37,393 nt of DNA from a virus, in UHGV virus genome UHGV-0149281; one strand, given 5' to 3'. Made by a program: the position numbers and the translations under genes. Below are positions 13,667 through 33,859 of this stretch, one piece after another. Each line of letters opens with the position of its first letter. The stretch's first letter is position 1. The notes beneath the pieces were generated by a model that was given only the letters and a program-made list of their open reading frames with translations, did no database searches and was not told the DNA's origin.

Positions 13667-14332
13667 ATGCGCTATTACGAAAGAATTGATGGCAGCAAAT
13701 ACCGAAATATTTGGGTAGTTGGCGATCTGCACGGATGCTACACGAACCTGATGAAAAAACTGGAGACGATAGGATTCGACACCAAAAAAGACCTGCTTAT
13801 CTCGGTGGGCGATTTGGTTGATCGCGGTACAGAGAACGTCGAATGCCTGGAATTAATCACATTCCCCTGGTTCCGAGCTGTACGTGGAAACCATGAGCAA
13901 ATGATGATTGATGGCTTATCAGAGCGTGGAAACGTCAATCACTGGCTGCTTAATGGCGGTGGCTGGTTCTTTAATCTCGATTACGACAAAGAAATTCTGG
14001 CTAAAGCTCTTGCCCATAAAGCAGATGAACTTCCGTTAATCATTGAACTGGTGAGCAAAGGTAAAAAATATGTCATCTGCCACGCCGATTATCCTTGTGA
14101 CGAATACGAGTTTGGAAAGCCAGTTGATCATCAGCAGGTAATCTGGAACCGCGAACGAATCAGCAACTCACAAGACGGGATCGTAAAAGAAATCAAAGGA
14201 GCGGACACGTTCATCTTTGGTCATACGCCAGCAGTGAAACCACTCAAGTTTGCCAACCAGATGTATATCGATACCGGCGCAGTGTTCTGCGGAAACCTCA
14301 CATTGATTCAGGTACAGGGAGAAGGCGCATGA
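13667..14332 (+). CDS. ninI: NinI Ser/Thr protein phosphatase
   Basis: 221 aa; metallophosphatase motifs GDLHG, GDLVDRG, GNHE matching the lambda phosphatase. Confidence 0.9.
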
Positions 14333-14952
14333 GACTCGAAAGCGTAGCTAAATTTCATTCGCCAAAAAGCCCGATGATGAGCGACTCACCACGGGCTACG
14401 GCTTCTGACTCTCTTTCCGGTACTGATGTGATGGCTGCAATGGGGATGGCGCAATCACAAGCCGGATTCGGAATGGCTGCATTCTGCGGTAAGCATGAAC
14501 TCAGCCAGAACGACAAACAAAAGGCTATCAACTATCTGATGCAATTTGCACACAAGGTATCGGGGAAATACCGTGGCGTGGCAAAGCTTGAAGGAAATAC
14601 TAAGGCAAAGGTACTGCAAGTGCTCGCAACATTCGCTTATGCGGATTATTGCCGTAGTGCCGCGACGCCGGGCGCAAGATGCAGAGATTGCCACGGTACA
14701 GGCCGTGCGGTTGATATAGCAAAAACAGAGCAGTGGGGGAGAGTTGTCGAGAAAGAGTGCGGAAGATGCAAAGGCGTCGGTTATTCAAGGATGCCAGCAA
14801 GCGCCGCATATCGCGCTGTAACGATGCTAATACCAAACCTTACCCAACCTACCTGGTCACGCACTGTTAAGCCGCTGTATGACGCTCTGGTTGTGCAATG
14901 CCACAAAGAAGAGTCAATCGCAGACAACATTTTGAATGCGGTCACACGTTAG
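14329..14952 (+). CDS. Q: late antiterminator Q
   Basis: 207 aa with the zinc-binding CRDCHGTG...CGRCKG region; matches lambda Q. Confidence 0.9.
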
Positions 14953-14993
14953 CAGCATGATTGCCACGGATGGTAACATATTAACGGCATGAT

Positions 14994-15023
14994 ATTGACT
15001 TTTTGAATAAAGTTGGGTAAATT
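14994..15023 (+). promoter_or_regulatory. late promoter pR' (with qut region)
   Basis: TTGACT -35, 17-bp spacer, TAAATT -10, as in lambda pR'. Confidence 0.75.
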
Positions 15024-15057
15024 TGACCCAACGATGGATAAATGCACTCGTTAAATA

Positions 15058-15090
15058 AAGCCCTGAGTTAATAGCTCGGGGCTTTTTGCG
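15058..15090 (+). terminator. tR' terminator
   Basis: GCCCTGAG...CTCGGGGC hairpin followed by TTTTT. Confidence 0.65.
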
Positions 15091-15385
15091 TTTTAATCAC
15101 GACCTTTCTGAAAGCACATCAAACCAAATACCAGACAGACAAAAATAATCACCTTATCCGCTGTGGCTACGGTGCGGTGTGCTTTGCATAAAAGAAAACC
15201 AGCTCAATGGCTGGCTTCGTGAAAGCGGGTGGCAAGAAGTTGCGCTAACAACCTCCTGCCGTTTTGCCCGTGCATATCGGTCACGAACAAATCTGATTAC
15301 TAAACACAGTAGCCTGGATTTGTTCTATCAGTAATCGACCTTATTCCTAATTAAATAGAGCAAATCCCCTTATTGGGGGTAAGAC

Positions 15386-15709
15386 ATGAAGATGCCAGAA
15401 AAACATGACCTGTTAGCCGCCATTCTCGCGGCAAAGGAACAAGGCATCGGGGCAATCCTTGCGTTTGCAATGGCGTACCTTCGCGGCAGATATAATGGCG
15501 GTGCGTTTACAAAAACAGTAATCGACGCAACGATGTGCGCCATTATCGCCTGGTTCATTCGTGACCTTCTCGACTTCGCCGGACTAAGTAGCAATCTCGC
15601 TTATATAACGAGCGTGTTCATCGGCTACATCGGCACTGACTCGATTGGTTCGCTTATCAAACGCTTCGCTGCTAAAAAAGCCGGAGTAGAAGATGGTGGA
15701 AATCAATAA
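15386..15709 (+). CDS. S: holin S (class I, dual-start motif)
   Basis: [41 protein letters not shown] matches lambda S. Confidence 0.95.
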
Positions 15710-16169
15710 TCAACGTAAGGCGTTCCTCGATATGCTGGCGTGGTCGGAGGGAACTGATAACGGACGGCAGAAAACCAGAAATCATGGTTATGACGTCATT
15801 GTAGGCGGAGAGCTATTCACTGATTACTCTGATCACCCTCGCAAACTTGTCACGCTAAACCCAAAACTCAAATCAACAGCCGCCGGGCGTTACCAGCTTC
15901 TTTCCCGTTGGTGGGATGCCTATCGTAAGCAGCTTGGCCTGAAAGACTTCTCTCCGAAAAGCCAGGACGCTGTGGCACTGCAACAGATTAAAGAGCGTGG
16001 CGCTTTACCGATGATTGACCGCGGTGATATTCGTCAGGCTATCGACCGTTGCAGCAATATCTGGGCTTCACTTCCGGGGGCTGGTTATGGTCAGTTCGAG
16101 CATAAGGCTGACAGCCTGATTGCAAAATTCAAAGAAGCTGGCGGAACGGTCAGAGAGATTGAGGTATGA
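15693..16169 (+). CDS. R: endolysin R (lytic transglycosylase)
   Basis: [51 protein letters not shown] matches lambda R. Confidence 0.95.
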
Positions 16170-16603
16170 GCAGAGTAACCGCGATTATCTCCGCTCTGGT
16201 TATCTGCATCATCGTCTGCCTGTCGTGGGCGGTCAATCATTACCGGGATAACGCCATGACCTACAAAGAGCAGCGCGATAAGGCCGCATCCACAGTCGCT
16301 GACATGCAGAAGCGTCAACGTGATGTAGCAGAACTCGACGCCAGATACACAAAGGAGCTTGCTGATGCTAACGCGACTATCGAAAGTCTCCGTGCTGATG
16401 TTTCTGCTGGTCGTAAGCGCCTGCAAGTCGCCGCCACCTGTGCAAAGTCAACGACCGGAGCCAGCAGCATGGGCGATGGAGAAAGCCCAAGACTTACAGC
16501 AGATGCTGAACTCAATTATTACCGTCTCCGAAGTGGAATCGACAAGATAACCGCGCAGGTTAACTACCTGCAGGAGTACATCAGGACGCAATGCCTTCGA
16601 TGA
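16166..16603 (+). CDS. Rz: i-spanin Rz
   Basis: N-terminal TM ([30 protein letters not shown]) matches lambda Rz; the central region diverges (mosaic). Confidence 0.9.
16365..16550 (+). CDS. Rz1: o-spanin Rz1 lipoprotein embedded in Rz (+1 frame)
   Basis: Lipobox LLVVSAC followed by a proline-rich segment; AAGGAG RBS; entirely inside Rz. Confidence 0.8.
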
Positions 16604-16779
16604 TAGCGATAATTTTACTCATCATCCTTCACATCTGGCTCTGTAGACAGGGTGGTGATCACTTCTGGAGTAAATCCAGATTAAACATCTCATTGCTGAT
16701 GCTTGATATTGAGCATCTGGCGCGCAGTAAGGGGCTGCGTTGAGATAAGAGCCAGTTCATTACAAATACCAGGATTTAG

Positions 16780-16802
16780 CCTCGCATTCGCGGGGTTTTT
16801 TA
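16780..16802 (+). terminator. rho-independent terminator after the lysis cassette
   Basis: RNA CCUCGC-AUUC-GCGGGG (one U-G wobble) followed by UUUUUUAUU. Confidence 0.55.
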
Positions 16803-16825
16803 TTCCCAACTCCATAGGTAATTTT

Positions 16826-17305
16826 ATGACCCAGCATATTGGCGTAAAACTGATTAACGCCTTTCCGATGACGAGACAGGCATATAACGATTTTCGTGGC
16901 TGGCAGCTTCCTGCCGGAGAAAACGGCGAGGACGAAGGCTATCTGGTTGAATATCTGGATGGCGGAAAACCTAACACCGATCGCTTTGATGGCTACGTTA
17001 GCTGGAGTCCAAAAGAAGTATTCGAAAAGGCTTATCGTCCGGTATCAGGGTTAAGTTTCGGCCTTGCCATGGAAGCGTTAAAACAGGGCAAAAGTTTGCA
17101 GCGGGCAGGATGGAATGGGAAAGACCAGTTTGTTTATCTCGTGAAAGGGGAAAAATTAGCGTCTGCGTTGGGTTATGGCTTTGGCGAATATGTTGGCGAG
17201 CCAACTTTCAATGACACGCTTGTATTGAAAAACTCACAGAACCGCCTTGCTACATGGGTTCCATCCATTGGCGACCTGATGGCTGAAGACTGGCAAATCA
17301 TTTAA
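16826..17305 (+). CDS. hypothetical protein with C-terminal DUF2829-like domain (possible Tad2-like nucleotide sponge)
   Basis: 159 aa from ATG 16826; motif FGLAMEALKQGKSLQRAGWNGKDQFVYL resembles the DUF2829 signature as I remember it; not verified. Confidence 0.6.
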   Translation: MTQHIGVKLINAFPMTRQAYNDFRGWQLPAGENGEDEGYLVEYLDGGKPNTDRFDGYVSWSPKEVFEKAYRPVSGLSFGLAMEALKQGKSLQRAGWNGKDQFVYLVKGEKLASALGYGFGEYVGEPTFNDTLVLKNSQNRLATWVPSIGDLMAEDWQII

Positions 17306-17608
17306 CCATGTAGGCATTACAAAGCCTATCTACGGGTGGGCTTGATAATGAAACCGGAGTTAATTTCTGGCCACTAATTAACGGCAGTACAGCGAAACAA
17401 CCCAAGCCAGTAAGTGGGGAAATAACACTGGCAGCCACTGAAAGATGAACCTCCAGCCTTATGGCAAAAAAGATTCTTTGTGGTGGCGGACTGATGGAAA
17501 GACATCGGTTATTGCAGAAACCATTCAATGAGTGGTCTCGACAATGGCTTATACCCTACACGGGATAACTTAACTGATATCCCTTTTAACGGATAAACGG
17601 AGCCAACA

Positions 17609-17851
17609 ATGGCAGAGATTATTCCCATGACTGAAGAACAGAAATTCCAGTTAGAGATTTACAAACTGGTCATGAACCAGAACGCAGCAGCAGAAGAAGC
17701 ATTTCAGTTCATTGGTACTGACGAGCTGAAGCTTGAGCTATTTAAAATTCACTTCCAGTCAGGCGGCGCTAATTCAGATATCACGACCCGTACTATCGAA
17801 GCGGTGCGTAAATCGAAGGAGGCGTTAGACCTGTTCACCGCTGGAGTGTGA
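17609..17851 (+). CDS. hypothetical acidic protein (80 aa)
   Basis: ATG 17609 with GGAG RBS; stop abuts the next gene start. Confidence 0.55.
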   Translation: MAEIIPMTEEQKFQLEIYKLVMNQNAAAEEAFQFIGTDELKLELFKIHFQSGGANSDITTRTIEAVRKSKEALDLFTAGV

Positions 17852-17852
17852 T

Positions 17853-18242
17853 ATGGCTAAGGCCAAATGGCACAAACTCCCGGCGTTCACCATTCCGCTG
17901 TTTCAAAGTGCACACGTCTACCTCGCAACAACCAGAGAACAGTTTCAGCACGCTGATAAATTCCTTGGCGGCAGCGGGGATGAGAAGCCATTCAATCTTG
18001 GGCTTGCAAGCAACTATGAAAACACTGATACGGGTGAGCGATGCTATCTGATTGGAGTATTCGATCAGCAGATCGCTACGCTCGTTCATGAGTGCGCCCA
18101 CGTCTGCTTTTACGTTTGCTCTGATGTCGGCGTGACGACAAGGCCTGAAGATGCCAACGAGACGTACTGTTACATGCTGGACAGGATGGTTAATCACTTC
18201 CTGCCATTCATTCAGGAGAAACAAGATGTATCACTGGAATAA
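17853..18242 (+). CDS. hypothetical protein with HExxH motif (putative zinc metallopeptidase)
   Basis: 129 aa; LVHECAHVCF contains HExxH within a predicted helix, with additional downstream Glu/Asp/His. Confidence 0.6.
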   Translation: MAKAKWHKLPAFTIPLFQSAHVYLATTREQFQHADKFLGGSGDEKPFNLGLASNYENTDTGERCYLIGVFDQQIATLVHECAHVCFYVCSDVGVTTRPEDANETYCYMLDRMVNHFLPFIQEKQDVSLE

Positions 18243-18420
18243 TCAATCCCCTTATTGCCAATGCCAACGCTGCCCGTGCTGCGGGAAGATTGTTAACCAA
18301 TTTACTGGCAACAATTTCTTCAAGACTGGTTATGGATATGGTGTTGCGGGTAGCGTTAATTGCTCTGGGGCTGCTGCTGAAACGACATCAAACACAGGCA
18401 AGCAGGAAGGAGCTAAGTAA
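18226..18420 (+). CDS. small Cys-rich protein (64 aa), possible zinc ribbon
   Basis: AGGAG RBS 9 nt upstream; CQCQRCPCCGK motif; an alternative overlapping ORF at 18290-18490 is hydrophobic. Confidence 0.35.
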   Translation: MYHWNNQSPYCQCQRCPCCGKIVNQFTGNNFFKTGYGYGVAGSVNCSGAAAETTSNTGKQEGAK

Positions 18421-18514
18421 TGGTAATCAAAGTTTGTTCAGGCTCTCAGGGCTTCGACAACCCATCCAAATTCCGCGAAGAGTGGGATAAGCAAACAGAA
18501 GGGAAATAATCAAT

Positions 18515-19003
18515 ATGGCAGCACCAAAGGGCAACCGATTTTGGGAGGCCCGCAGCAGTCATGGGCGAAATCCTAAATTCGAATCGCCTGAGGCGCTGTG
18601 GGCTGCTTGTTGTGAATACTTCGAGTGGGCTGATGATAACCCGCTATGGGAGGGTAAGGTATTTTCATATCAGGGAAAAATAATTAAGGCTAATGTCCCT
18701 AAGATGCGAGCCATGACTATTTCAGGATTGTGTACCTTCCTTGATATCACCAGGCAAACATGGGGAACCTTCCGGTCAATGGAAGGTTTTTCTGACGTCA
18801 CATCACGAGCGGAAGACATCATCTACGACCAGAAATTCTCTGGCGCAGCCGCTGACCTTCTCAACGCTAACATCATCGCCCGTGATTTGGGCCTCAAAGA
18901 GCAGTCGCAAGTTGAAGACGTGACACCTGATAAGGGAGATCGCGATAAGCGGCGCTCTCGTATCAAGGAGCTATTCAACCGTGGAACTGGACGCGATTCT
19001 TGA
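18515..19003 (+). CDS. terminase small subunit (P22 gp3-like)
   Basis: 162 aa, the length of P22 gp3; position immediately upstream of the large terminase. Confidence 0.85.
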
Positions 19004-20480
19004 TAACCTGAGCGACGAAGAGCAAATCGAATTGCTCGAGCTACTCGAAGAAGAAGAGAACTACCGGAACACACACCTGCTATATGAATTTACGCCATAC
19101 AGCAAACAGCGTGAGTTCATCGACGCCGGGCATGACTATCCAGAGCGCTGTTTTATGGCTGGTAACCAGCTTGGTAAGTCATTTACTGGTGCTGCTGAAG
19201 TCGCGTTTCACCTTACCGGGCGTTATCCGGGCACAAAAGGCTATCCTGCTGATGGTAAATATGGTGGGGAGTGGAAAGGTAAGCGTTTCTATGAGCCTGT
19301 TGTCTTCTGGATTGGTGGCGAGACAAACGAGACTGTAACCAAAACGACTCAACGCATCCTGTGCGGTCGTATCGAAGAGAATGATGAGCCAGGCTACGGT
19401 TCCATACCTAAAGAAGACATCATTAGCTGGAAGAAGTCTCCTTTCTTTCCGAACCTTGTTGATCATCTTCTGGTTAAGCATCACACGGCTGATGGCGTTG
19501 AAGATGGCATTTCAATCTGCTACTTCAAACCATACTCGCAAGGCCGCGCTCGCTGGCAGGGTGACACAATCCACGGCGTGTGGTTTGACGAAGAGCCACC
19601 ATACAGCATTTATGGCGAAGGGCTTACCCGTACCAACAAATACGGGCAATTCTCAATTCTGACGTTTACCCCGCTGATGGGGATGTCTGACGTTGTTACC
19701 AAGTTCCTGAAGAATCCCAGCAAGTCTCAGAAAGTGGTCAACATGACCATCTATGACGCTGAGCACTACACCGACGAGCAGAAAGAGCAAATCATCGCAT
19801 CCTATCCCGAGCATGAGAGAGAGGCGCGTGCTCGCGGTATTCCTACGATGGGTAGTGGTCGAATCTTCCAGATACCGGAAGAGACGATTAAGTGTCAGCC
19901 GTTCGAGTGTCCTGATCACTTCTACGTAATTGGCGGGATGGATTTCGGATGGGATCACCCGCAGGCGCAGGTTCAGCTTTGGTGGGATAAGGACGCAGAC
20001 ACAATCTACGTTTCACGCGTGTGGAAGGCGAAAGAAAAAACAGCCGTTCAGGCGTGGGGAGCCGTTAAATCATGGGCGCATAAAGTGCCAACTGCATGGC
20101 CTCATGACGGAAACCAGCATGAGAAGGGCGGCGGTGAGCAGCTCAAAGGGCAGTATGCGGACGCTGGATTTATGATGTTGCAGGAGCATGCGACATGGCC
20201 TGATGGCGGTAACGCTGTTGAGCCTGGCATCACTGAATTGCGAGACATGATTCTCGACGGTCGCTTCAAAGTATTCAACACCTGTGAGCCATTCTTTGAG
20301 GAGTTCCGCCTCTATCACCGTGATGAAAACGGGAAAATCGTCAAGCTTAACGACGACGTGCTATCCGCCGTTCGCTATGCATACATGATGCGCCGCTTCG
20401 CAAAAATGATGCGCGACATCAAAAAGCCAAAAGAGAAAAAGATACCAGCCCCAATCAGGCCCATCGCACGGAGAACTTAA
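18981..20480 (+). CDS. terminase large subunit (P22 gp2-like)
   Basis: 499 aa; Walker A-like NQLGKS; sequence matches remembered P22 gp2. Confidence 0.95.
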
Positions 20481-22646
20481 ATGGCCGACGAAAACAGACT
20501 CAATTCCATTCTGTGTAAGTTTGACGCAGACTGGATGGCGAGCGATGAAGCCAGAACCGAGGCGACAAATGACCTGTATTTTAGCCGAGTGTCGCAATGG
20601 GATGACTGGCTATCAAACTACACCACCCTGCAATATCGCGGACAATTCGATGTTGTCCGCCCGGTGGTCAGGAAGTTGGTCGCAGAGATGCGCCGGAACC
20701 CTATCGACGTTCTCTTCCGACCAAAAGACGGTGCTAATCCTGATGCAGCCGATGTGTTGATGGGGATGTATCGTACTGATATGCGCCATAACACGGCAAA
20801 GATTGCCGTTAACGTTGGCGTTCGTGAGCAGATAGAGTCCGGCGTTGGTGCATGGCGTCTGGTCACACAGTACGAAGACAACGATCCAACAAGCAACAAT
20901 CAGGTAATCAGACGCCTGCCAATCCATGAAGCCTGCTCACACGTCATATGGGACGCCAACAGCAAGCAGATGGATAAGAGCGACGCTAAGCACTGCACGG
21001 TGATTAACGCTTTGTCACGCAATGGCTGGAAAGAGTTCGCAGAGGATTACGGTATTGATCCTGACACGCTGCCATCTTTCCAGAATCCAAACGATACATG
21101 GCTGTTTCCGTGGGTATCGAATGATGTCGTCTACGTCGCTGAGTATTACGAGGTCGAAGAGAAGAAAGAGAAAGTCTTCATCTATCGCGACCCGCTGACA
21201 GGTGAGCCAGTCAGCTATTACCAGCAGGATATCAAAGACGTCATCGACGACCTGGCTAATCGTGGATTCATTAAGGTAGCAGAGCGTAAGGTGAAGCGTC
21301 GGCGTGTGTATAAGTCGATCATCACCTGCACGCAGATACTGAAAGACCGCGAGAAGATAGCCGGAGAGCATATTCCAATCGTTCCAGTGTATGGCGAATG
21401 GTCATTCGCTGGTGACAAGGAGTGCTACGAAGGAGTGGTAAGGCTGACGAAAGACGGTCAACGCCTTCGTAACATGATCATGTCATTCAACGCCGATATT
21501 GTTGCTCGCTCACCGAAGAAGAAACCGACCTTCTTCCCTGAGCAAATCGAAGGCTACGAATACATGTACGGTGGAAATGATGACTATCCGTACTATCTGC
21601 AGAACAGGACCGATGAAAACGGTAGCGACCTGCCGATTGGTCCAATCTCCTACATGGAAAACCCTGAAGTGCCGCAAGCCAACGCTTATATGCTTGAGGC
21701 TGCCACCAACGCAGTGAAAGAGGTGGCTAGTCTTGGTGTGGATGCGCAGGCAGCAAACTCTCAGGTCGCTTTCGATACCGTCAATCAACTGAACATGCGG
21801 GCAGACCTTGAGACATACGTGTTTCAGGATAACCTGGCTACCGCAATGCGACGTGATGGCGAGATTTATGCCTCAATGGTCAACGATATTTATGACGTTC
21901 CTCGTCATGTAACGCTGACACTTGAAGATGGAAGCGAGAAAGACGTTCAACTCTATGCGCAAGTTGTCGATTACCAGTCCGGCAATGTGGTCACACTCAA
22001 CGACATTCGCGGTCGCTATGAGTGCTATACAGACGTTGGACCATCCTTCCAGAGTATGAAGGAACAGAACCGCGCAGAGATTCAGGAGTTGCTCACCAAG
22101 GTTCCGCAAGGTACTCCAGAGTTCCAGATGCTGATGCTGCAATACTTCACGCTGCTTGACGGTAAAGGCGTCGAGATGATGCGAGAGTACGCGAACAAGC
22201 AACTGGTGATGATGGGGCTTAAGAAACCAGAAACACCTGAAGAGATGGAGATGGTACAGCAGGCTCAACAGCAGCCGCAGCAGCCATCAGCAGAGCAAAT
22301 TCAGGCGCAGGGTATCCTTCTGCAAGGTCAGGCTGAATTGCTCAAGGCAGAGAACCAACAGGCGCAGATTCAGGTTGAAGCCGCCAAGGTTGAAGCTCAA
22401 AACCAACTCAACGCCGCGAAGATTGCAGAAATCTTCAACAATATGGACCTCGACAAGCAGGCAGAACTGCGTGAGTACCTCAAGCTCGTAGGTCAATTCC
22501 AGCAACAGCGCAGCAAAGATGCTCGTGCTAACGCTGAGCTGCTTCTTAAAGATGCAGACCAGGCTCATTCACAACGCATGGATTTCGCGAATCTTATGCG
22601 TCAAGTTCAAATCTCCTCCGGCGGAGTAGCCGAGACACCTCAATAA
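20481..22646 (+). CDS. portal protein (P22 gp1-like)
   Basis: 721 aa; MADNENRL...[17 protein letters not shown]...[18 protein letters not shown] matches P22 portal; Gln-rich C-terminal barrel region. Confidence 0.95.
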
Positions 22647-22659
22647 GAGAGAGTTAATC

Positions 22660-23571
22660 ATGGACCAAACCACCGACATTCAGGCTTCTGAAGAATTAAC
22701 CCTGCCCGGCAATCATGCAGCGGCATCTGCTGATGGCTTAGTTGTCGATAATGCCAACGACAACGCAGGTCAGGAAGAAGGCTTCGAGATTGTCCTGAAA
22801 GACGATGAGAAACCAAAACAAGACCCGGCAACTAATGCTGAATTTGCCCGTCGCCGCATCGAACGCAAACGCCAGCGTGAGCTTGAGCAACAGATGGAAG
22901 CGGTTAAGCGTGGAGAGTTGCCGGAGCACCTGCGGGTGAACCCTGAGTTACCAAAACAACCAGACCCTAACGATTATCTTTCCGAAGATGCACTGGCTAA
23001 GTACGACTATGACCAGAGCCGCGCACTGGCTGCCTTCCAGCAGGCAAATAGTGAATGGCAGATCAAGGCTATGGACGCACGAAGCCAGGCTGTCGCCGAG
23101 CAGGGTCGCAAAACTCAGGAGTTCACCCAGCAATCAGCGCAATACGTCGAGGCAGCCCGTAAGCACTACGACGCAGCGGAAAAGCTCAATATCCCTGACT
23201 ATCAGGAGAAAGAGGATGCATTCATGCAACTGGTGCCGCCAGCAGTCGGTGCCGACATCATGCGCCTCTTCCCGGAGAAATCCGCTGCTCTCATGTATCA
23301 CCTTGGTGCTAATCCTGAGAAAACACGCCAGTTGCTGGCGATGGACGGGCAATCCGCGCTGATTGAACTCACTCGACTGTCAGAACGTTTAACTCTCAAG
23401 CCTCGAGCCAAACCTGTTTCAGAAGCCCCGCTACCTGATGAACCCATTCAGGGACACGCTGTTGCTGCAAATATATCTGCGATTGAAAAGCAGATGGAAG
23501 CGGCAGCAAACAAAGGGGATGTAGAGACATACCGCAAGCTCAAGGCGCAACTGAATAAAGGAATTCGATAA
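22660..23571 (+). CDS. scaffolding protein (P22 gp8-like)
   Basis: 303 aa; [31 protein letters not shown]...[31 protein letters not shown] matches P22 gp8. Confidence 0.95.
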
Positions 23572-24093
23572 TTATTTCGATATCGTGATGTTGTTTTCCT
23601 CGTCAAACTTTCTGATTACTTCTTTCGCCTCTTCGAATGAAGAACATACTTTTTGCACTCTTGCATTAAGCAGTCGCTTATGAGCGATCCATCTTTTCCG
23701 CGTGTTGCAAAAGTAAACTCCAGATATTCCGCTGGAGTTATTTTTAGATAGTTTGATTCTATTCCTTTGGTTTGCTGATTTTTTCACAAGACGAAGATTT
23801 TCAATTCTGTTGTCGTGGCGAATCCCATTTATATGGTCAATTTCCATGCCTTCTGGAATATCTCCGTTAAACATTACCCATACGATGCGGTGTGCTAGCC
23901 ACTTAATGCCGTTAATTCTTATGCGGATATATCCATTGCTTTCTAAAAGACCAGCAACTTTCCCAGCGTGTTTTGCATTCCAAACGTTGTGATAGTTGCG
24001 ATTCTTTTTGTTGTTGAAAAATTCAGAGCTTCTGGCTTTCCAAACCAAAGAGCCATCGCGGTATTCGAAGTATTCATTCAGTTCCATGCTCAT
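23572..24093 (-). CDS. free-standing HNH homing endonuclease with AP2-like DNA-binding domain
   Basis: 173 aa; HNH motif EIDHINGIRHDNRIENLRLV; C-terminal SGISGVYF...KRWIAHKR AP2-like; AT-rich; opposite strand to the head operon. Confidence 0.85.
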   Translation of the reverse strand: MSMELNEYFEYRDGSLVWKARSSEFFNNKKNRNYHNVWNAKHAGKVAGLLESNGYIRIRINGIKWLAHRIVWVMFNGDIPEGMEIDHINGIRHDNRIENLRLVKKSANQRNRIKLSKNNSSGISGVYFCNTRKRWIAHKRLLNARVQKVCSSFEEAKEVIRKFDEENNITISK

Positions 24094-24160
24094 AACCCTA
24101 ATGCGCTATATGTTGATATAACAATAGTATAGCACATAAAGAAAGTAAGGTATTCAATAT

Positions 24161-25456
24161 ATGACTCTCAAAGAAGGGCAGTTAGTTACTTACGCTATCG
24201 ATGAAATCATCGAAACCGTCCAGAACCTGACGCCAATGGCGTCCAAAGTGACAAAATACACCCCTCCGGCAGAATCCATGCAGCGTTCAAGCAACACCGT
24301 GTGGATGCCTGTTGAGCAGGAAGCGCCAACCCAGACTGGCTGGGATTTAACTGGCAACGCAACCGGGATTCTGGAACTCTCCGTGAAATGCAACATGGGC
24401 GGTCCGGATAACGATTTCTTCGAGCTTCGTGCAGATGACCTGCGTGATGAGCGTTCTTACCGTCGCCGCATTCAGGCATCCGCCAAAAAACTGGCGAATA
24501 ACATTGAGTCAGCGATTGCCAAACAGGCAACTGAAATGGGCTCGCTTGTTGTTCACGATACCCGCGCAATTGGTCCATCTACTGGCCTGTCTGGCTGGGA
24601 TTTTGTGTCTGATGCAGAGCGCCTGATGTTCTCCCGTGAGCTAAACCGCGATATGGGCATCAGTTACTTCCTGAACCCTGACGATTACCGCAAAGCAGGA
24701 CGCAACCTGGTAGATGGTGACATCTTCGGTCGCGTTCCTGAAGAAGCGTATCGCAACGGTACTATTCAGCGTCAGATTGCTGGCTTTGATGAAATTCTTC
24801 GCTCACCGAAACTTCCGGCAGTTACCAAGTCAACCGCTACTGGTGTAACTGTTTCTGGTGCGCAGAAGTTTAAGCCGCAGGCATACACCCTTGATACCGA
24901 TGGTAACAAAGAGAACGTCGACAACCGTGTTGCAACGGTGACCGTATCCTCCACCACCGGGTTTAAGCGCGGCGACAAAATCAGCTTCACTGGTGTGAAA
25001 TTCCTGTCTCAGATGGCGAAGAATGTGCTAACTGATGACGCGACTTTCTCAATCACTCGTGTGATCGATGGTACTCACATCGAAATCACGCCGAAACCGA
25101 TTGCACTGGATGACGCGTCACTGACAAAAGAAGAGAAGGCTTACGCTAACGTAAACACCTCTCTTGCTGATGCCACTCCGGTAAACGTTCTGAACGTGGC
25201 AACAACCACCGCTAACGTGTTCTGGGCTGATGACTCAATCCGTCTGCTGTCTCAGCCGATCCCGGTAACCCATGAACTGTTTGCTGGCATGAAAACGTCT
25301 TCCTTCAGCATTCCTGGTATTGGTGTTAACGGCATCTTCGCAACGCAGGGTGATATCAACACTCTGTCTGGTAAGTGCCGTATTGCTGTGTGGTATTCAG
25401 CATGTGCTGTACGACCAGAGGCAATTGGTGTTGGTCTGCCTAACCAGACCGCGTGA
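24161..25456 (+). CDS. major capsid (coat) protein (P22 gp5-like)
   Basis: 431 aa; [21 protein letters not shown]...[15 protein letters not shown] matches P22 coat. Confidence 0.95.
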
Positions 25457-25464
25457 TAACCAGA

Positions 25465-25488
25465 GGGAGCTTCGGCTCCCTTTTTTAT
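25465..25488 (+). terminator. hairpin terminator/attenuator after the coat gene
   Basis: GGGAGC-TTCG-GCTCCC followed by TTTTTT. Confidence 0.6.
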
Positions 25489-25500
25489 CTGGAGACAAGC

Positions 25501-25731
25501 ATGACACACATGATCTTTCGTCATGGCGACATGAAGAAGTGGAAAGGAGTTGGGTACGACTTTGAAATCGTGAAAGCCGAAGAGCTTCAGGAATATCTGG
25601 ATGCTGGCTGGGTTGCACATCCTGATGATCTTCTGAAGGATGTTGAAGAGCCAGAGCCAGAAGAAAAACAGCGTAAAAAGCCTGGTCGAAAACCTAAGGC
25701 GGCAGCAGATGAACCTGACAACGAAGGGTGA
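25501..25731 (+). CDS. small acidic/basic hypothetical protein (76 aa)
   Basis: ATG 25501 with GGAG RBS; overlaps the gp4 start by 23 nt. Confidence 0.45.
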
Positions 25732-26209
25732 TTTAGTCCTTGCAGCATTACGTAAGCTCGGTGTTGCATCAAATGCCACGTTAACCGATGTCGAACCGCA
25801 GTCTATGGAAGACGGCGTCAACGACCTTGAAATGATGATGGCTGAATGGCTTGGCGGTGATGCGTCACCTGGGATCAACGTTGGCTACATTTTTGCTGAT
25901 GCAGATGTTGCTCCGGATCCGGGCGATGAGCACGGCTTATCAAATAACGCTATAAATGCTGTCATTTTCAACCTTGCCTGCCGCATTGCTCCGGATTATG
26001 CGCTGGAAGCGTCTGCAAAACTTATAACCACTGCCAGATACGGGAAAGAGCAACTCGTCAAACTGTCTGCAATGGACAGAGCAAAAGCCGCTAAATGTAA
26101 GTCCGGTTATCCAAACCGTATGCCTGTTGGTAGCGGTAATCAGTTGGCGAAGTGGAACGGTTGGAATTACTTCCACCGGAAGGAACCTTGCGATAACGGG
26201 AGCGAATAA
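25709..26209 (+). CDS. head completion/portal-closure protein (P22 gp4-like)
   Basis: 166 aa; [37 protein letters not shown] matches P22 gp4. Confidence 0.9.
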
Positions 26210-27628
26210 ATGCCGATTCAGCAACTTCCGCTTATGAAAGGTGTCGGCAAAGATTTCAGAAACGCCGACTATATCGACTATCTGCCAGTGAATATGTTGG
26301 CTACACCCAAAGAAATCCTCAACAGCAGCGGATATCTTCGCTCATTCCCGGGCATTGCCAAACGTTCTGATGTGAACGGCGTATCGCGAGGCGTCGAGTA
26401 CAACATGGCGCAGAATGCTGTTTATCGCGTGTGTGGTGGCAAGCTGTATAAGGGCGAAAGTGAAGTCGGTGATGTTGCCGGAAGTGGTCGCGTATCAATG
26501 GCGCATGGTCGGACATCACAGGCGGTAGGCGTTAATGGTCAACTGGTCGAGTATCGTTATGATGGCACGGTTAAAACCGTCTCAAACTGGCCTACAGACA
26601 GTGGATTCACTCAGTATGAGTTAGGTTCGGTTCGTGACATTACGCGCTTACGTGGGCGTTATGCGTGGTCAAAAGACGGAACTGATTCATGGTTTATCAC
26701 TGACCTTGAAGACGAATCGCACCCTGACCGATACAGCGCACAATATCGTGCAGAGTCTCAGCCTGACGGCATCATCGGCATCGGAACATGGCGAGACTTC
26801 ATCGTCTGCTTTGGTTCATCGACGATTGAATATTTCTCCCTGACTGGCGCAACCACCGTTGGTGCTGCTTTGTATGTCGCACAGCCATCACTGATGGTGC
26901 AAAAAGGAATAGCCGGAACCTACTGCAAAACGTCGTTTGCTGATTCTTATGCATTTATCAGCAATCCGGCAACAGGTGCGCCGTCTGTGTATATCATCGG
27001 CTCCGGTCAGGTATCACCAATCGCCAGCGCGAGCATTGAGAAAATACTACGCTCCTACACTGCTGATGAACTGGCTGATGGCGTGATGGAGTCTCTGAGA
27101 TTTGATGCGCATGAGTTGCTGATTATCCATCTTCCGCGCCATGTCCTCGTATACGACGCATCTTCAAGCGCCAATGGTCCGCAATGGTGTGTGCTGAAAA
27201 CCGGCCTGTATGACGATGTGTACCGCGCTATCGACTTCATTTATGAGGGCAATCAGATAACGTGCGGCGACAAACTGGAATCGGTGACCGGGAAATTGCA
27301 TTTCGATATCAGCAGTCAGTATGGGCTTCAACAGGAACACCTGCTGTTTACTCCACTGTTCAAAGCGGATAACGCCAGAGTTTTCGACTTTGAGATTGAA
27401 TCGTCAACTGGCGTTGCGCAGTACGCCGACCGCCTTTTTCTCTCTGCAACCACTGACGGCATAAATTACGGACGTGAGCAGATGATTGAACAGAATGAAC
27501 CGTTCGTTTACGACAAACGCGTTTTGTGGAAGCGAGTTGGGCGCATCAGGAAAAATGTCGGCTTCAAATTGCGCGTTATCACGAAGTCACCTGTCACTCT
27601 GTCAGGCTGCCAGATAAGGATTGAGTAA
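26210..27628 (+). CDS. tail hub protein (P22 gp10-like)
   Basis: 472 aa; near-identical to remembered P22 gp10 along its length. Confidence 0.95.
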
Positions 27629-28329
27629 TGGCTGATTCGAATCTCAACACCCCTGTTATTGTGCAGGCGACGCGGCTCGATACATCAATCCTTCCACGCA
27701 ATATCTTCTCGCAGTCGTATCTGCTGTACGTTATCGCACAGGGTACTGATGTTGGTAACGTGGCGAACAAGGCCAACGAGGCCGGACAGGGCGCTTATGA
27801 CGCACAAGTCAGGAACGATGAGCAGGATGTGATTCTGGTCGATCACGAAGAAAGAATTCGTCAGCTCCGCATCGACGTAGACGACCATGAAATCCGTATT
27901 ACTGCAAATACCAATGCAATCGCGTCGCTGGATGTCAGACTAACCACGGCTGAAGGTGAAATAGTCACCTTGCAGGCTGATGTCAGTGCTCTCGATGGTA
28001 GAGTGACGGAGGCTGAAGGAAATATTTCTGCATTGCAGGACGATTACGTATCGAAAACAGCCACAGCAACACAATCGCTGGCATCCCCCCTCAACGTAAC
28101 AACATCCTATTCAGTCGGCGGTACCAAGGTTATCGGTGCTCGTCAGACAGGATGGACAGCGGCAACCGGAACGGCACTCCTCGGCGCATTCAACGCTAAC
28201 CAGGCATACACTGTCGGCACTACGTACACGCAATCCGAAGTCGCGGCTCTCGCTACAGGTTTGCAGCAGGCGCGGCAGCGTATTCTGGCGCTTGAAACGG
28301 CACTTAGATTACATGGGCTGATTGACTGA
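27628..28329 (+). CDS. tail needle (P22 gp26-like)
   Basis: 233 aa trimeric coiled-coil needle; N-terminal 140 aa match P22 gp26; C-terminal tip diverges. Confidence 0.9.
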
Positions 28330-28784
28330 TGATTACATTCAAACCAACGCGAAACATCGACCTGATCGAAGCAGTCGGAAATCACCCTGACATTATTGCC
28401 GGAAGCAACAACGGTGATGGATACGACTACAAGCCTGAATGCCGTTACTTTGAGGTGAACGTGCACGGTCAGTTTGGCGGCATTGTTTACTATCAGGAGA
28501 TTCAGCCGCTGACATTCGATTGCCACGCCATGTACCTGCCAGAGGTTCGTGGATTCAGCAAGGAAATCGGGCTGGCGTTCTGGCGATACATTCTGACTAA
28601 CACCACCGTTCAGTGCGTAACATCGTTCGCTGCACGCAAATTCCGCCACGGTCAGATGTACTGCGCAATGATTGGCCTTAAGCGTGTAGGAACCATCAAG
28701 AAATACTTCAAAGGCGTGGATGACGTGACTTTTTACAGCGCAACACGTGAAGAACTAATCGACTTCCTGAATCACGGGAGATAG
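28329..28784 (+). CDS. P22 gp14-like protein
   Basis: 151 aa ORF at the syntenic position between gp26 and gp7. Confidence 0.75.
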   Translation: MITFKPTRNIDLIEAVGNHPDIIAGSNNGDGYDYKPECRYFEVNVHGQFGGIVYYQEIQPLTFDCHAMYLPEVRGFSKEIGLAFWRYILTNTTVQCVTSFAARKFRHGQMYCAMIGLKRVGTIKKYFKGVDDVTFYSATREELIDFLNHGR

Positions 28785-28786
28785 CC

Positions 28787-29482
28787 ATGTTATATGCATT
28801 TAAGCTGGGCAGAAAACTGCGCGGCGAGGAACCTTATTGCCCTGAAAAAGGCGGGAAAGGTGGCAGTTCTGATAAAAGCGCAAAGTATGCAGCAGAAGCT
28901 CAGAAGTATGCCGCAGACCTGCAAAATCAGCAGTTCAACACCATCATGAACAACCTGAAGCCGTTTACTCCTCTGGCTGATAAGTATGTCGGCAGCCTCG
29001 AGAACTTATCGTCTCTGGAAGGGCAAGGTCAGGCACTTAACCAGTATTACAACTCTCAGCAGTACAAAGATCTTGCTGGTCAGGCTCGCTATCAGAGTCT
29101 GGCGGCAGCGGAAGCAACAGGTGGATTGGGTTCCACTGCAACCGGTAATCAGTTAGCAACAATCGCACCAACGCTTGGTCAGCAATGGCTATCTGGTCAG
29201 ATGAACAACTACCAGAATCTGGCAAATATTGGTCTTGGCGCACTGCAAGGTCAGGCAAACGCCGGGCAGACATATGCCAACAACATGAGTCAGATTTCGC
29301 AGCAAAGTGCGGCTCTTGCAGCGGCAAATGCCAACAGACCATCAGCAATGCAATCTGCTATTGGCGGAGGTGCGTCTGGTGCTATTGCTGGGGCTGGACT
29401 TGCGAAATTAATTGGTTCATCAACTCCGTGGGGTGCTGGTATCGGTGCTGGTATCGGTCTGCTTGGTTCACTGCTTTATTAA
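28787..29482 (+). CDS. ejection protein (P22 gp7-like)
   Basis: 231 aa; N-terminal MLYAFKLGRKLRGEEPYCPEKGGKGGS; Gln/Ala-rich; C-terminal glycine-zipper hydrophobic segment. Confidence 0.9.
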   Translation: MLYAFKLGRKLRGEEPYCPEKGGKGGSSDKSAKYAAEAQKYAADLQNQQFNTIMNNLKPFTPLADKYVGSLENLSSLEGQGQALNQYYNSQQYKDLAGQARYQSLAAAEATGGLGSTATGNQLATIAPTLGQQWLSGQMNNYQNLANIGLGALQGQANAGQTYANNMSQISQQSAALAAANANRPSAMQSAIGGGASGAIAGAGLAKLIGSSTPWGAGIGAGIGLLGSLLY

Positions 29483-29491
29483 GGGGTAATC

Positions 29492-30871
29492 ATGGCTACG
29501 TGGCAACAGGGTATTAATTCTGGTGGTTTTCTGGCTGGCATCGGTACGCAAAATGAGAATGCGCCAAAGGCAAGCGACATTAACGCAACGCTTGGTCTGA
29601 TCCGCGAAAACAATGAACTGGCTCGCTCAGGTGCAAATAACGTTGGTCTGACCGCGTTACGTGGTCTGGCTGGAGTTGCTGATATTTACAATCAGGAACA
29701 GCAACAGAAAGCTATTAGTGCGTTCAATAAGGTTCACGCTGATGCATGGGCTTCTGGTGATCCATCGGGACTATTTAAGTTTGCCCAGGAAAATCCAGCG
29801 TTTGTTGCACAGGCACAACAGGCGTTTTCCGGTCTTAATGAGCAGCAACGCAACGATATGGGCGATTTAGCCATGAGGGCTAACGTCGCTCTTTCTCAGG
29901 GACCGGAAGCCTACAGTAAATTCATTACTGACAACAAGGACAGGTTAAATCGCGTGGGGGCGAATGCTGACTGGATGATTCAGACAGGTATCCAGAATCC
30001 AGAGCAGCTATCACACATGCTGACTACTATGTCTCTCGGTGCGCTTGGACCAGAAAAGGCGTTTGCTGTTCAGGATAAGATGGCTGGTCGTGAAATTGAC
30101 CGAGGCAGGCTGGCAGAGACAATCCGCAGCAATCAGGCTGGCGAGGCGCTAACAGCGCGTGGTCAGAATATCACGATGCGCGGTCAGGATTTATCGATGC
30201 AGAGAGCATCAATGAAAGGGTCGGTTGGGAATAATGAGCGTACAGTTCAGTTAGCAGATGGCAGAACTGTAACGGTAGGCGGGAAGCTTCACGGCGCTGG
30301 GGCTAATGCGTTCTACGAAGGTATCGACAACGAGGGGAATATGGTTCGCGTTCCTGCTGGCTCTATTGCCGCTCCGGCTACATCGGCAGCAAGCGCGCAG
30401 AATTACGCAATGAAGAAAGATCTTGATGCAATTTCTGGTGCATCAATTGACGATCTTGGCTTCATGACTGGCATTACAGGCTCTTCAGGTTCTCCTGCTC
30501 TTGGTGCAGATATTCGTAGCCGTGCATCTGGTGGTGATCAGAGGAAACTATACAACGCTGCACAGCGAATCCAAGGAAAGATGCAGAATCAGGGCATTGC
30601 AGCAGCCAGAGACATGGGGGCATCCGGTATCAACACCGTTGCAGAAGCAAAGCTGTATTTTCAAGGTATGCCACAGGTTGATTTCTCAAGCCCTGAAGCA
30701 CTGCAACAATCAATGCGCGACATTCAGCAATATACCGACAATTACAACCAACAATATAACGTTAATGTCGGTAATGGAGGGAAGAAATCATCAATGCAAC
30801 AGCCGCCTACTCAGCAATCAGCAGGAGGTAGCTACACGTCAAAATCAGGCATTCAATTTACGGTGGAATGA
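29492..30871 (+). CDS. ejection protein (P22 gp20-like)
   Basis: 459 aa ORF at the syntenic position; start overlaps the gp16 gene end. Confidence 0.85.
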
Positions 30872-32997
30872 TGAAAGTAACTGCAAACGGTAAGACATTT
30901 ACCTTTCCTGATGGTACGAGCACCGAAGATATTGGCACCGCCATTGATGAGTATTTTGCTGGTCAGGCTGTTCAGCAACAAACAGTTAATCAGGCCAATA
31001 ATGCACCAACACGGGAAGAACCATCATTGATGCAACAAGCTGGCGATTGGCTCACTGGTGGTCAAAGTGCAGGGCAAATTGCAGAACAGGCTGGTCGTGG
31101 TCTGGTAAACATACCATTTGACGTATTGCAGGGTGGCGCAAGTCTGATTAATGCAATCAGTCAGGGGCTTGGTGGCCCCAAGGTTTTGGATGATGTCTAT
31201 CGCCCTGTCGATCGACCGACAGACCCTTACGCGCAAGCCGGTGAAACAATTGGTGGGTATCTCCTGCCAATTGGCACAGCAGCAAAAGCTGCTGGAGCGC
31301 CAGCAAAGCTCGCAGGAGACATCGGTTCCGCAGGAAACATGATTGCCGGTTCTCTTGCTGATGCTGCAAATCAGGAGGGTGATTTTGCACAAAATGCTGC
31401 CATTAACGGTGGTATCAATATTGGTGCTCAAAGCGTTCTTTCAGGTGTCGGGCGCGTTATTGCGCCAAGAGTTTCACAGGCTCTTGGTGGTGCAGCACTG
31501 AATTCTGCTAATGATGTTTCCAGGATGGCAAAGTCAGGTGCTGGGCGTCAGTCAATTGCCAGTCAGGCCGCTAATGTGTCCGAAGATGTAGCAAAAGCGG
31601 CTGAGTCTGCTGGAATTGATATAAACGCATTAACACCAGGAATGCGATCTGGAAGTCGTGGAATTGCACAAGCCGAAGGCGCATTGGCATCAACACCAGG
31701 AATTGTTCAGGACGCCCATCAGGCAGCATTTAACGAAATATCATCAAAGTTAAGTCGAAACCTTGATGAATTTGGGGCCGCATCTGGAACGGCATCAGAA
31801 AAAAGTGCGGCTATAAAACAAAGGATTCTTCAAAATCTTGATCAGATGAAGGATGCCGAGCGCGCGGCATGGGATGACGTGCGGTCAACAATGCCAAATC
31901 AAAAAGCAAGAATGCTAAATGGTAATGCCGTTATTCAGGCAGAGCGATCTGCTGGCATACCGCTTACTCCTGAAATGAAACAGTTTGTTCAGGCAAACAA
32001 TCAAGGTGGAGTAACATTTGATGGCATGAAAGCATGGAGAGCGAAATTTGCTGATGCGGAGCAAAAATATAAGCGTGGCGGAGAGGCAAATGCGGCAAGG
32101 AGAGCAGGGGAAATACGCCGGGCAATTACTGATGATATGCGCACAATGGCGGAAAACGGCGGATTTCTTGATGACTGGCAGAAAGCTAATGATCTGTCTA
32201 AAGCGAGGTTATCAGCACAAGAGAGTGCAGAGTCTGTTTTCGGGCGTGATTTGGCAACAGATGCACTGATTACGAATGGAGTAAAATCCCTTCAATCATC
32301 GTCAGCTAAAGGTCTTAATGGTCCTGCTGGGTTCCATTCTATGATCCGCGCGCTGCCAGAATCAGAGCGTGTTCCTGCTATATCATCAATGTTGCAAGAT
32401 GCTATCTCGCATGGTGTACGTGGTGGCAAAGCTGATGCAGCAGGAATTAACCATATCGCAGGGATACTTACCCCACAAAATGTAAAAGCCATTAGCAGGT
32501 ATTCCTCAGAACTTGGAAGAATTGCTGATGCATATGGCACTCTTGCAAGAGCAGCAGTGAAACCTCAGCAGTATATTGAAAGAACAGGGAGAACTGCCAA
32601 TGTACTACGCGATCTGGATGCCGGTTTATCCAACGTCACATCAACAGTGTTAAATGCAATTGCCAACTCAACATCAGGTGCAATTGTTGGTGGAGCAGGA
32701 GGAGGGGGTATTGCAGGCGCTGCCGCAGGTGCTTTAGTTGGCGCCGGGTTAAAAGGTGCTGTATCTAAAATTGCCACCACGCGTAGCGGTCGATATGCGA
32801 TAGAGAAAGCAGTTCAGGAAGCCACGAAAGCAGTAAGAGCTGGCGGAAGTAAAGAAGCATTAGCGGCGGCGGAACGCAGATTTATGGCAAATAAAGCCGC
32901 CGTAAAAGCAATACGTGATGCAGTTGGAAACGAAGAGTTCAATCGCTTAGCGAGGGCTGGCATTGTAGCGTCGCTAAGCGGAATAGCACAGGAGTAA
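30868..32997 (+). CDS. ejection protein (P22 gp16-like)
   Basis: 709 aa, Ala/Gly-rich; last gene of the ejection-protein block before the ImmI region. Confidence 0.85.
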
Positions 32998-33321
32998 TTA
33001 ATCATCCATGGATGGATTGAGCTTATCTCGTGTTGATGTGGCGATTTGTCCTACATTCCTAAGCCAAGATTTCAAATCCTTGATATTGTCATTGATTTCA
33101 TGAATATCTTCTTTTTTTAGTCTGTTAATATTATTCTCAATAATTTCAATGGATTGCTCAATATCAGATATAGTGAATGATAGTTTGTTCTTCTCATCTT
33201 TTATTGAGTTTTTAAGTGCTTCGTTCTCAGTCTTGAGGTCAGATATCTTTTGTTTTAAAGATGCCAGTTGGTACTGAACCACAATGAGTGCGATAGCTAT
33301 CACGATAACTGTTGTATACAC
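32998..33321 (-). CDS. small membrane-anchored coiled-coil protein (sieA-locus replacement)
   Basis: GTG start with strong AAGGAGG RBS; N-terminal TM (YTTVIVIAIALIVV) then a heptad coiled coil; very AT-rich. Confidence 0.65.
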   Translation of the reverse strand: MYTTVIVIAIALIVVQYQLASLKQKISDLKTENEALKNSIKDEKNKLSFTISDIEQSIEIIENNINRLKKEDIHEINDNIKDLKSWLRNVGQIATSTRDKLNPSMDD

Positions 33322-33439
33322 ACCAACCTCCTTAGTTTTGAGCAGGATACCATGAAAAAAGTAAACATCTTTTGCCTACTTCACATTTGAATGGTTTGTC
33401 ATTAGGATGTTTCCGGTTTTTTCAAATATGGAAATTGAT

Positions 33440-33859
33440 ATGAAGAGGATTATCGGCGTTGTTGCTGGCGCTATATTGTTATCTGGGTGCGCAACTATTG
33501 TTGGTGACGAAACACAGCTCGTGCAAGTGAACAGCAATCCTTCCGGTGCGAGCTTTAAAGTAAAAGACGAATCAGGCGTGATTGTTGCGCAAGGCAAGAC
33601 CCCGCAAGGAGTAACTCTTGCCAAGTCAGATGGTAGTTATTTTGGCAAAAAGAGCTACCAGATCACTATGGAAAAGGATGGGTACGAACCAGTTACCCTG
33701 CCAATCAAAGCCAATGCTAATGGTTGGTATATTGGTGGAAACCTTGTGTTTGGTGGGTTAATTGGTTGGCTTGCTGTAGATCCTTTTAATGGCGGGATGT
33801 ATACCTTGAAGCCAAAAGAGGCAAACGCATCTCTTATACCATCAACAAAGCAAGACTAA
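33440..33859 (+). CDS. lipoprotein of unknown function
   Basis: Signal peptide with lipobox LLSGC; Gly-rich C-terminal segment GGNLVFGGLIGWLAVDPFNGGMY; own terminator. Confidence 0.75.
   Translation: MKRIIGVVAGAILLSGCATIVGDETQLVQVNSNPSGASFKVKDESGVIVAQGKTPQGVTLAKSDGSYFGKKSYQITMEKDGYEPVTLPIKANANGWYIGGNLVFGGLIGWLAVDPFNGGMYTLKPKEANASLIPSTKQD

Follow-up and report, generated by a model that had tools for sequence, protein, structure and literature searches.

The scaffolding and coat protein genes of the virus genome UHGV-0149281 (37,393 nt, the whole of which is referred to here as the window) are separated by an open reading frame (ORF) on the minus strand (23572..24093) that encodes a protein of 173 aa from an ATG start. 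Comparison with relatives that carry or lack this ORF indicates that it is very probably the core of an HNH-AP2 type homing endonuclease gene (HEG) cassette, free-standing and lodged where scaffold meets coat in a P22-like (Lederbergvirus) phage or prophage. Such a cassette would comprise the antisense nuclease gene, a 67-nt spacer with a promoter-like element, a replacement Shine-Dalgarno (SD) sequence for coat, and a recoded stretch covering the first 39 nt of coat. A free-standing homing endonuclease architecture had been proposed in a first-pass annotation of the window, and it is supported by the existence of insert-less relatives, by intact catalytic residues, and by the unlinking of the cassette from its flanks.

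Insertion site, extent of the unit and evidence of mobility

Alignment with P22-like relatives that lack the insert, which the first-pass annotation had proposed, fixes the insertion point to the base (97-99% flank identity). The phages Louie (L082, PQ850616.1) and Dewey exhibit the same arrangement as the window at 98.7-98.8% identity, whereas APC_JM3.2, HZ41, IME10 and CurroJimenez_Bas106 match both flanks at 97-98% without 590 nt. In such HNH-less relatives, scaffold ends and coat begins within a single overlapping TAATG (the common HEG-less junction reads GGAATTCGATAATGGCATTAAATGAAGGTCAACTGGTCACG), and the insert thus splits an otherwise contiguous gene pair, as had been claimed. The left edge of the insert is the scaffold stop codon (TAA, 23569-23571), where scaffold and the HNH gene lie tail-to-tail with abutting stops (CGATAA/TTATTT); this boundary is sharp, and the scaffold 3′ end is without excess divergence. 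On the other side the HNH gene is head-to-head with coat, with the 67-nt spacer between the HNH start and the coat ATG, and the right boundary lies inside coat itself. Here nt 4-39 hold 14 differences (36%) relative to every insert-less relative as compared with ∼2-3% in the rest of the gene, and 10 of the 12 codons from 2 to 13 are changed, seven synonymously and the other three as A2T, N4K and L13I. As a consequence of this excess, the foreign unit is taken to end at 24199 rather than at the coat ATG, and it spans 23572-24199 (628 nt), consisting of a 589-nt insert (23572-24160) and a recoded coat 5′ block (nt 1-39, 24161..24199, plus strand) that always travels with the HNH gene. The earlier account of the mobile unit is refined in this respect, as the unit reaches 39 nt into coat.

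Presence of the insert is patchy. It was found in 20 of 218 complete E. coli genomes with this locus (∼9%), the flanks of the ∼197 HEG-less genomes being 96-99% identical, and 12 IMG/VR contigs encode a protein that is 99-100% identical, whereas the HNH gene is missing from every Salmonella P22-like phage record that the scaffold gene matched. The window scaffold gene is 100% identical to that of an HNH-less prophage in E. coli M160133. A near-isogenic pair is provided by the IMG/VR contig L011, which carries the HEG, and phage CurroJimenez_Bas106, which does not; over 4,844 aligned nt they exhibit 19 differences, 14 of them in coat nt 4-39 and 0 in the 2,411 nt upstream, together with one 590-nt indel. 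When 14 unique HEG-carrying and 59 unique HEG-less haplotypes, which are not phylogenetically independent samples, were compared, only the 14 block sites exceeded an allele-frequency difference of 0.3. Divergence between the two classes in scaffold (1.14%) is matched by the diversity within them (1.21% and 1.04%), and the same is seen in coat beyond nt 39 (1.89% between classes, 1.85% and 1.98% within). The cassette is thus fully unlinked from its flanks in the population sample. Nucleotide diversity among the 14 carriers (the window, Louie and 12 IMG/VR contigs) is 0.40% in the cassette as compared with 1.04% in scaffold and 1.98% in coat (i.e. 2.5-5 times lower in the cassette). The patchy presence, the near-isogenic pair, the lack of flank differentiation and the low diversity of the cassette, taken together, require repeated transfer of a discrete unit among already diverse backbones, with recombination at the cassette edges that is frequent enough in this sample to erase all linkage beyond 39 nt. 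These results are in agreement with the proposal of a mobile element within the structural operon.

The base composition sets the insert apart from its neighbours, with a GC content of 39.1% in the HNH ORF, 28.4% in the spacer and 37.9% in the entire insert, as compared with 52.6% in scaffold and 51.2% in coat. An AT-rich, opposite-strand HNH and AP2-like ORF with an AT-rich upstream region of its own had been described; the coordinates and strand of the ORF proved exact, and the upstream region corresponds to the spacer, which is missing from the HNH-less relatives. Both flanking genes are complete, namely the scaffolding protein gene (P22 gp8 type, 22660..23571, plus strand; Pfam PF09306, E=1.7e-179) and the coat (major capsid) protein gene (P22 gp5 type, 24161..25456, plus strand; Pfam PF11651, E=1.3e-164), the latter being ordinary backbone past nt 39. 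With the flanking genes whole and the HNH gene a separate ORF on the opposite strand of an intergenic insertion, the exclusion of an intron or intein form stands.

The nuclease and its relatives

The protein is, as judged from profiles and a predicted fold, an I-HmuI-like HNH nuclease with an AP2 DNA-binding domain. Residues 66-110 (LAHRIVWVMFNGDIPEGMEIDHINGIRHDNRIENLRLVKKSANQR; 23764..23898, minus strand) form the HNH (beta-beta-alpha-metal) catalytic core and match Pfam HNH_3 at E=3.9e-22 (78 bits against a cutoff of 24.8), and PHROG 99 ‘HNH endonuclease’ is matched at 1.3e-50. The core is preceded by an N-terminal region (residues 1-65; 23899..24093, minus strand) that is modelled as a beta-hairpin and a helix and corresponds in the alignment to the DNA-binding N-terminus of I-HmuI, and is followed by a C-terminal AP2-type DNA-binding domain of three strands and a helix (residues 121-166; 23596..23733, minus strand). 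Among proteins of solved structure, I-HmuI (1u3e) comes out as the best relative in sequence, profile and fold comparisons, with a match at E=8e-4 for the single sequence (query residues 35-120) and at 2.1e-8 for a 104-member family profile (profile positions 19-113). In this alignment D86, H87, N99 and N108 line up with D74, H75, N87 and N96 of I-HmuI, in which the catalytic His reportedly acts as the general base and Asp and Asn reportedly serve as metal ligands. Invariant in the 104 homologues are H68, D86, H87, D94, N95, R96, N99 and L100, with N108 conserved in >90%. The catalytic residues, whose absence had been named in the first-pass annotation as grounds for rejecting a nuclease, are thus intact, as are the family-invariant residues. 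An AlphaFold model from the single sequence was unusable (pLDDT 35.8), whereas the model obtained with the 104-sequence alignment (pLDDT 90.4) predicts a beta-beta-alpha fold resembling that of the solved HNH homing enzyme I-HmuI. The AP2 match is weak when the sequence is taken alone (Pfam AP2, E=0.019) and solid at the family level, where the profile matches WRI1 at 1.8e-6, the fold agrees and many homologues have PF00847; the pairing of Pfam AP2 with HNH_3 is likewise present in many homologues. A search of the protein against NCBIfam gave no match, and PADLOC returned generic ‘homing endonuclease’ models only. Existing annotations of Louie, Dewey and RefSeq E. coli genomes already label the gene ‘HNH endonuclease’. 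A tblastn search of the window with the junction nuclease found no paralogue. Five further HNH genes are annotated in the early regions of Louie (including 22694-23161, 28241-29041 and 32852-33629), and these sit in regions not common to the window.

The state of the gene bears on whether it could be a decaying, inactive relic of a past invasion, a reading that we regard as hardly tenable. Its one point of support is E. coli EEC_W5 (L083, CM130020.1), where a 1-nt deletion at the window-equivalent position 23867 splits the HNH ORF; the same assembly also has a 1-nt deletion in the essential coat gene (24962), which frameshifts it and points to a probable assembly error or a dead prophage, and the split gene was set aside as uninformative on decay. 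The ORF is intact in all 14 other copies, 11 of which encode an identical protein, and the catalytic residues are intact; purifying selection on the gene likewise contradicts a relic. An HNH protein associated with packaging, of the HK97 gp74 type and a partner of terminase and portal, is barely credible either. The portal and large terminase genes do lie upstream of scaffold, and the HNH gene, at ∼3 kb from the large terminase gene, is within the head/packaging cluster. Against such a role, ∼91% of near-identical head modules work without the HNH gene, including those of the cultured phages IME10, APC_JM3.2 and CurroJimenez, and genes for headful packaging of the P22 TerS/TerL type are present (PF16677 GP3_package in L075, Terminase_6N/6C in the window). 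The pairing of HNH_3 with AP2 and the I-HmuI fold are moreover of the homing-enzyme type, and the gene is on the opposite strand; the packaging role was discarded on the strength of the viable HNH-less relatives and the domain type.

Among known systems, I-HmuI is a nicking enzyme of Bacillus phage SPO1 whose gene sits within a group I intron and whose C-terminal domain is a helix-turn-helix, whereas the window protein is free-standing, has an AP2 domain and is ∼24% identical to it. HNH-AP2 homing endonucleases are said to have been described by Magnani et al. in 2004. They constitute a described class of free-standing HEGs that cluster near essential phage genes, capsid genes included (PMC10448857). 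The ‘IPA-HNH’ HEGs of Vibrio phage ICP1 (Barth et al. 2023, PMC10448857) have the same free-standing plan with an N-terminal HNH and a C-terminal AP2 domain, although the ICP1 proteins are too divergent for Pfam HNH_3 (PMC10448857), which the window protein matches strongly; unlike the ICP1 HEGs, the window gene is found in a temperate P22-like phage, antisense in the late operon and at one fixed intergenic site. The free-standing HEGs of T4 (MobE, an HNH enzyme, and the Seg proteins, which are GIY-YIG enzymes) likewise lie between conserved genes, and differ in their DNA-binding modules and in their lytic T-even hosts. T4 HEGs are described as moving by cutting the HEG-less allele, with co-conversion of flanking sequence (PMC2790892, PMC2988022); in the window and its relatives, co-conversion is visible as a fixed block of 39 nt, with no hitchhiking in the flanks beyond. 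No published description of a HEG at the P22 scaffold/coat junction, of the 39-nt block or of the allelic series was found in a literature search of incomplete coverage, and the genome announcement of Louie and Dewey makes no mention of the cassette. Free-standing HNH-AP2 HEGs near capsid genes are thus known, whereas this cassette, its recoded block and the allelic series appear to be undescribed, no paper on them having been found.

Predicted target, immunity and a third allele

All four HEG-carrying lineages, i.e. that of the window and three diverged ones (L074, L075/L076 and L080), contain GAAGGGCAG at coat codons 5-7, and GGGCAG is found in all four at coat nt 16-21 (codons 6-7; nt 18 corresponds to 24178 and nt 21 to 24181). 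A pattern scan of IMG/VR for P22-type coat starts returned at least 106 HEG-less alleles (∼21 distinct sequences, from E. coli and from Salmonella P22/L types). Among the matches listed, the HEG-less alleles have GGTCAA (99), GGCCAA (5) or GGTCAG (2) and GGGCAG in 0 of 106, whereas the three carriers among them have GGGCAG. Phage L exhibits the non-carrier pattern at coat codons 6-7. The differences between the L075 lineage and its HEG-less counterpart are likewise concentrated in codons 2-9. We infer from these patterns that recognition or cleavage by the enzyme takes place within the near-invariant GAAGGTCAA region (codons 5-7), and that the synonymous change of GGT CAA to GGG CAG, together with neighbouring changes, would protect the HEG-carrying genomes and so confer a predicted immunity.

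On this basis, the cassette may move as follows. Genomes with and without the HEG would share a cell via co-infection, superinfection of a lysogen or prophage induction, and the nuclease would bind DNA through its N-terminal and AP2 domains. A nick or cut would then be introduced into the HEG-less allele within the first ∼30 nt of coat, around the GAAGGTCAA of codons 5-7, and recombinational repair on the HEG-carrying template would copy the cassette in, whereas HEG-carrying genomes would be spared by virtue of their recoded coat 5′ end, in which GGT CAA is replaced by GGG CAG with neighbouring, mostly synonymous, changes. In this scheme nuclease activity, the cut position and the promoter are predicted, as is whether a given event was a gain or a loss.

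A third allele is present in eight E. coli genomes, which have no HEG, are of the common type at TAATG and coat nt 1-11, and carry the HEG-linked sequence at nt 12-39, GGGCAG included. Across 217 genomes, ∼189 have the common allele, 8 the chimeric allele and 20 the HEG, with no further intermediate alleles among them. As GGGCAGTTAGTTACT is otherwise exclusive to HEG-carrying alleles, the chimeric allele most likely descends from a carrier that underwent patchy conversion or lost its HEG. An allele of this form is the expected remnant of either event, and it is counted in favour of a homing cassette. The chimeric allele may accordingly be viewed as a candidate HEG-less resistant allele of the kind that the HEG life cycle predicts. 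One common-type HNH-less P22-like scaffold/coat locus is found in E. coli NZ_CP026085.1 (1465254-1465373), a genome labelled DH5alpha; a P22-like locus is unexpected in this laboratory K-12 strain, and the record may have been mislabelled or the stock lysogenised.

Capsid assembly and mosaic phage evolution have classically been studied in P22-like phages. In them, the scaffold-coat junction provides a natural allelic series of sensitive-looking (∼189 E. coli genomes), chimeric HEG-less (8) and HEG-carrying (20) alleles, with a two-base predicted immunity signature. Louie and Dewey, which carry the HEG, and CurroJimenez, which does not, infect the same E. coli K-12 O16 host, and thus homing, co-conversion tract length and competitive benefit are testable in a temperate phage. 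General knowledge of homing endonucleases is unchanged by these findings; the system is unusually clean and experimentally tractable.

Diverged lineages, the spacer and alternative explanations

The nearest diverged homologues of the protein, at 82%, 73% and 61% amino acid identity, are encoded on the metagenomic contigs L074, L075/L076 and L080, respectively. In each of them the gene lies antisense between P22-type scaffold and coat genes, at the same site and in the same orientation as in the window, and the coat proteins are 89%, 74% and 68% identical to that of the window. The L075/L076 insert interrupts the same TAATG junction when compared with its closest HNH-less relative (L137, ∼87% identity). 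Between the lineages, pS values of 0.68-0.94 are near or at saturation, whereas pN values are 0.10-0.26, and the dN/dS of ∼0.06 between the window and L074 is comparable with that of coat. Same-site orthologues that are under purifying selection despite saturated synonymous sites imply that the HEG family has apparently been kept functional at the scaffold-coat junction for a long time, which is in keeping with ongoing homing among P22-like phages, perhaps coupled with some advantage for the phage. The first-pass annotation had named an ancestral conserved gene in related genomes as the finding that would speak against an insertion. This applies in part, as same-site orthologues in three further P22-like lineages, together with purifying selection, do reveal an old association; presence is patchy, with 20 of 218 E. 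coli genomes and no Salmonella P22-like phage record, and the gene is therefore not a conserved core gene.

The AT-rich divergent spacer (24094..24160, both strands), which is part of the insert, is absent from HNH-less relatives and aligns across the four HNH-carrying lineages. It contains an SD-like TAAGGT (24146..24151, plus strand) located 9 nt upstream of the coat ATG, and this element is conserved in all four lineages, with the counterparts GTAAGG (L074), GGTAGGA (L075) and GGTAAGGA (L080). In HNH-less genomes the native coat SD (AAGGA) sits inside the scaffold 3′ end. As read from the sequence, the insertion abolishes the TAATG coupling, displaces the native SD from coat and supplies a replacement, which would be needed because the scaffold/coat coupling is destroyed. 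An effect on coat-gene expression, raised earlier as a possibility, is given concrete form by the lost coupling and the SD that the cassette has in its place. An insertion can thus break scaffold-coat translational coupling and yet stay viable, as the cassette carries its own ribosome-binding site. In the opposite direction, an extended −10-like TGCTATACT (24126..24134, minus strand) was read from the sequence ∼33 nt upstream of the HNH start, with a −35-like TTGAAT (24152-24157, minus strand) lying 20 nt upstream of it. The counterparts of these elements are TGCTATAAT in L074, TGCTATACT in L075 and TTGCAT-17 nt-TATAAT in L080. Because of the extended −10 motif and its conservation in the four lineages, we hypothesize that the spacer may hold a candidate promoter for the HNH gene.

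Two other features of the insert were considered and dropped. A terminator-like hairpin at 23716-23739 with an 8-bp stem and a T-run (AACTCCAGATATTCCGCTGGAGTT ATTTTT), inside the HNH ORF and in the direction of the late operon, was considered as a possible attenuator of late transcription. This hairpin is retained in part in L074 and absent from L075 and L080, and is probably incidental. The right end of the spacer was considered as a diverged copy of the scaffold 3′ end, but the two resemble each other over only ∼20 nt around the SD, and inspection by eye revealed no remnant of an ORF. In L080, a GC-rich hairpin (GGGGCGGTAAGCCCC; 3340-3350) between the HNH and scaffold stops separates the convergent genes and could be a bidirectional terminator; no such hairpin is present in the window, L074 or L075, where the stops directly abut.

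Several points weigh against a homing cassette with the parts described above, in addition to the non-independence of the haplotypes. The direction of change (gain or loss) in the near-isogenic pair cannot be read from the sequence. Instead of determining immunity, the recoded block could simply have come from the donor lineage as the sequence that separates the HEG from the first long run of identity; one part of it (K4, I13 and TACGCTATC) is common to a natural HEG-less lineage, such that this part reflects donor ancestry and not immunity. No promoter was called in the 67-nt spacer by a simple sigma-70 scanner, which accepts only spacings of 16-18 nt. Finally, HEG divergence roughly tracks coat divergence, which is also compatible with long vertical residence and occasional loss.

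In its full form, the last of these points holds that the gene is an old, vertically inherited accessory of the head module that has been repeatedly lost, in which case the polymorphism would consist of deletions and the nuclease would perhaps no longer be moving. The same-site orthologues in four lineages, whose amino acid identities roughly parallel those of coat, are consistent with this account, and the chimeric HEG-less allele does resemble a product of HEG loss. It is nevertheless improbable, as each loss must restore TAATG and the exact common 39 nt, which implies gene conversion from a HEG-less phage and not deletion. Furthermore, the cassette is less diverse than its flanks by the margin given above, and backbones that are indistinguishable from the HEG-less pool require repeated transfer; strong purifying selection and an ORF that is intact in 14 of 14 carriers argue for continued activity.

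A different account is that the nuclease is kept for the benefit of the phage, either as a weapon against HEG-less P22-like competitors (interference or superinfection exclusion) or as an AP2-mediated regulator of scaffold and coat, with homing being secondary. The low dN/dS and the retention of one site across saturating synonymous divergence agree with such a benefit, as does the antisense orientation of a gene with a promoter-like element of its own, set within an operon that lysogens keep silent. A precedent is found in an intron-encoded HNH endonuclease that is reported to interfere with a co-infecting phage (PMC11620839). Occurrence in only ∼9% of comparable E. coli prophages and in no Salmonella P22-like phage record is unlike that of a strongly beneficial gene, and we therefore consider benefit as the primary cause of retention very improbable; it is at the same time compatible with homing, as the same cleavage would serve both. 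Within the favoured explanation of a homing cassette, a use as a prophage weapon can be put forward tentatively, although we think it rather unlikely. The nuclease, made from its own promoter-like element and antisense to a late operon that is silent in lysogens, would cut the coat start of incoming HEG-less P22-like phages and convert the survivors. If true, this would explain both the strong purifying selection and the retention at one site in four deeply diverged lineages. For the enzyme of the jumbo phage PhiPA3, it is reported that cleavage of an essential gene of a relative may give a competitive advantage (PMC11620839); that enzyme is intron-encoded whereas the window enzyme is free-standing, and a competitive role here is hypothetical.

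Beyond the cassette, the head module of the window (18515-27836) is 97% identical to that of Louie, whereas positions 1-18500 and 27800-37393 match Louie only in short mosaic patches, as is typical of P22-like mosaicism. A second variable spot within the head module lies between coat and the gp4-type head-tail adaptor (25457-26209), where gene content varies among near-identical relatives and different small ORFs are annotated in Louie, APC_JM3.2, IME10 and CurroJimenez. The final ORF of the window (35427-37343) is tailspike-like and mostly unrelated to that of Louie.

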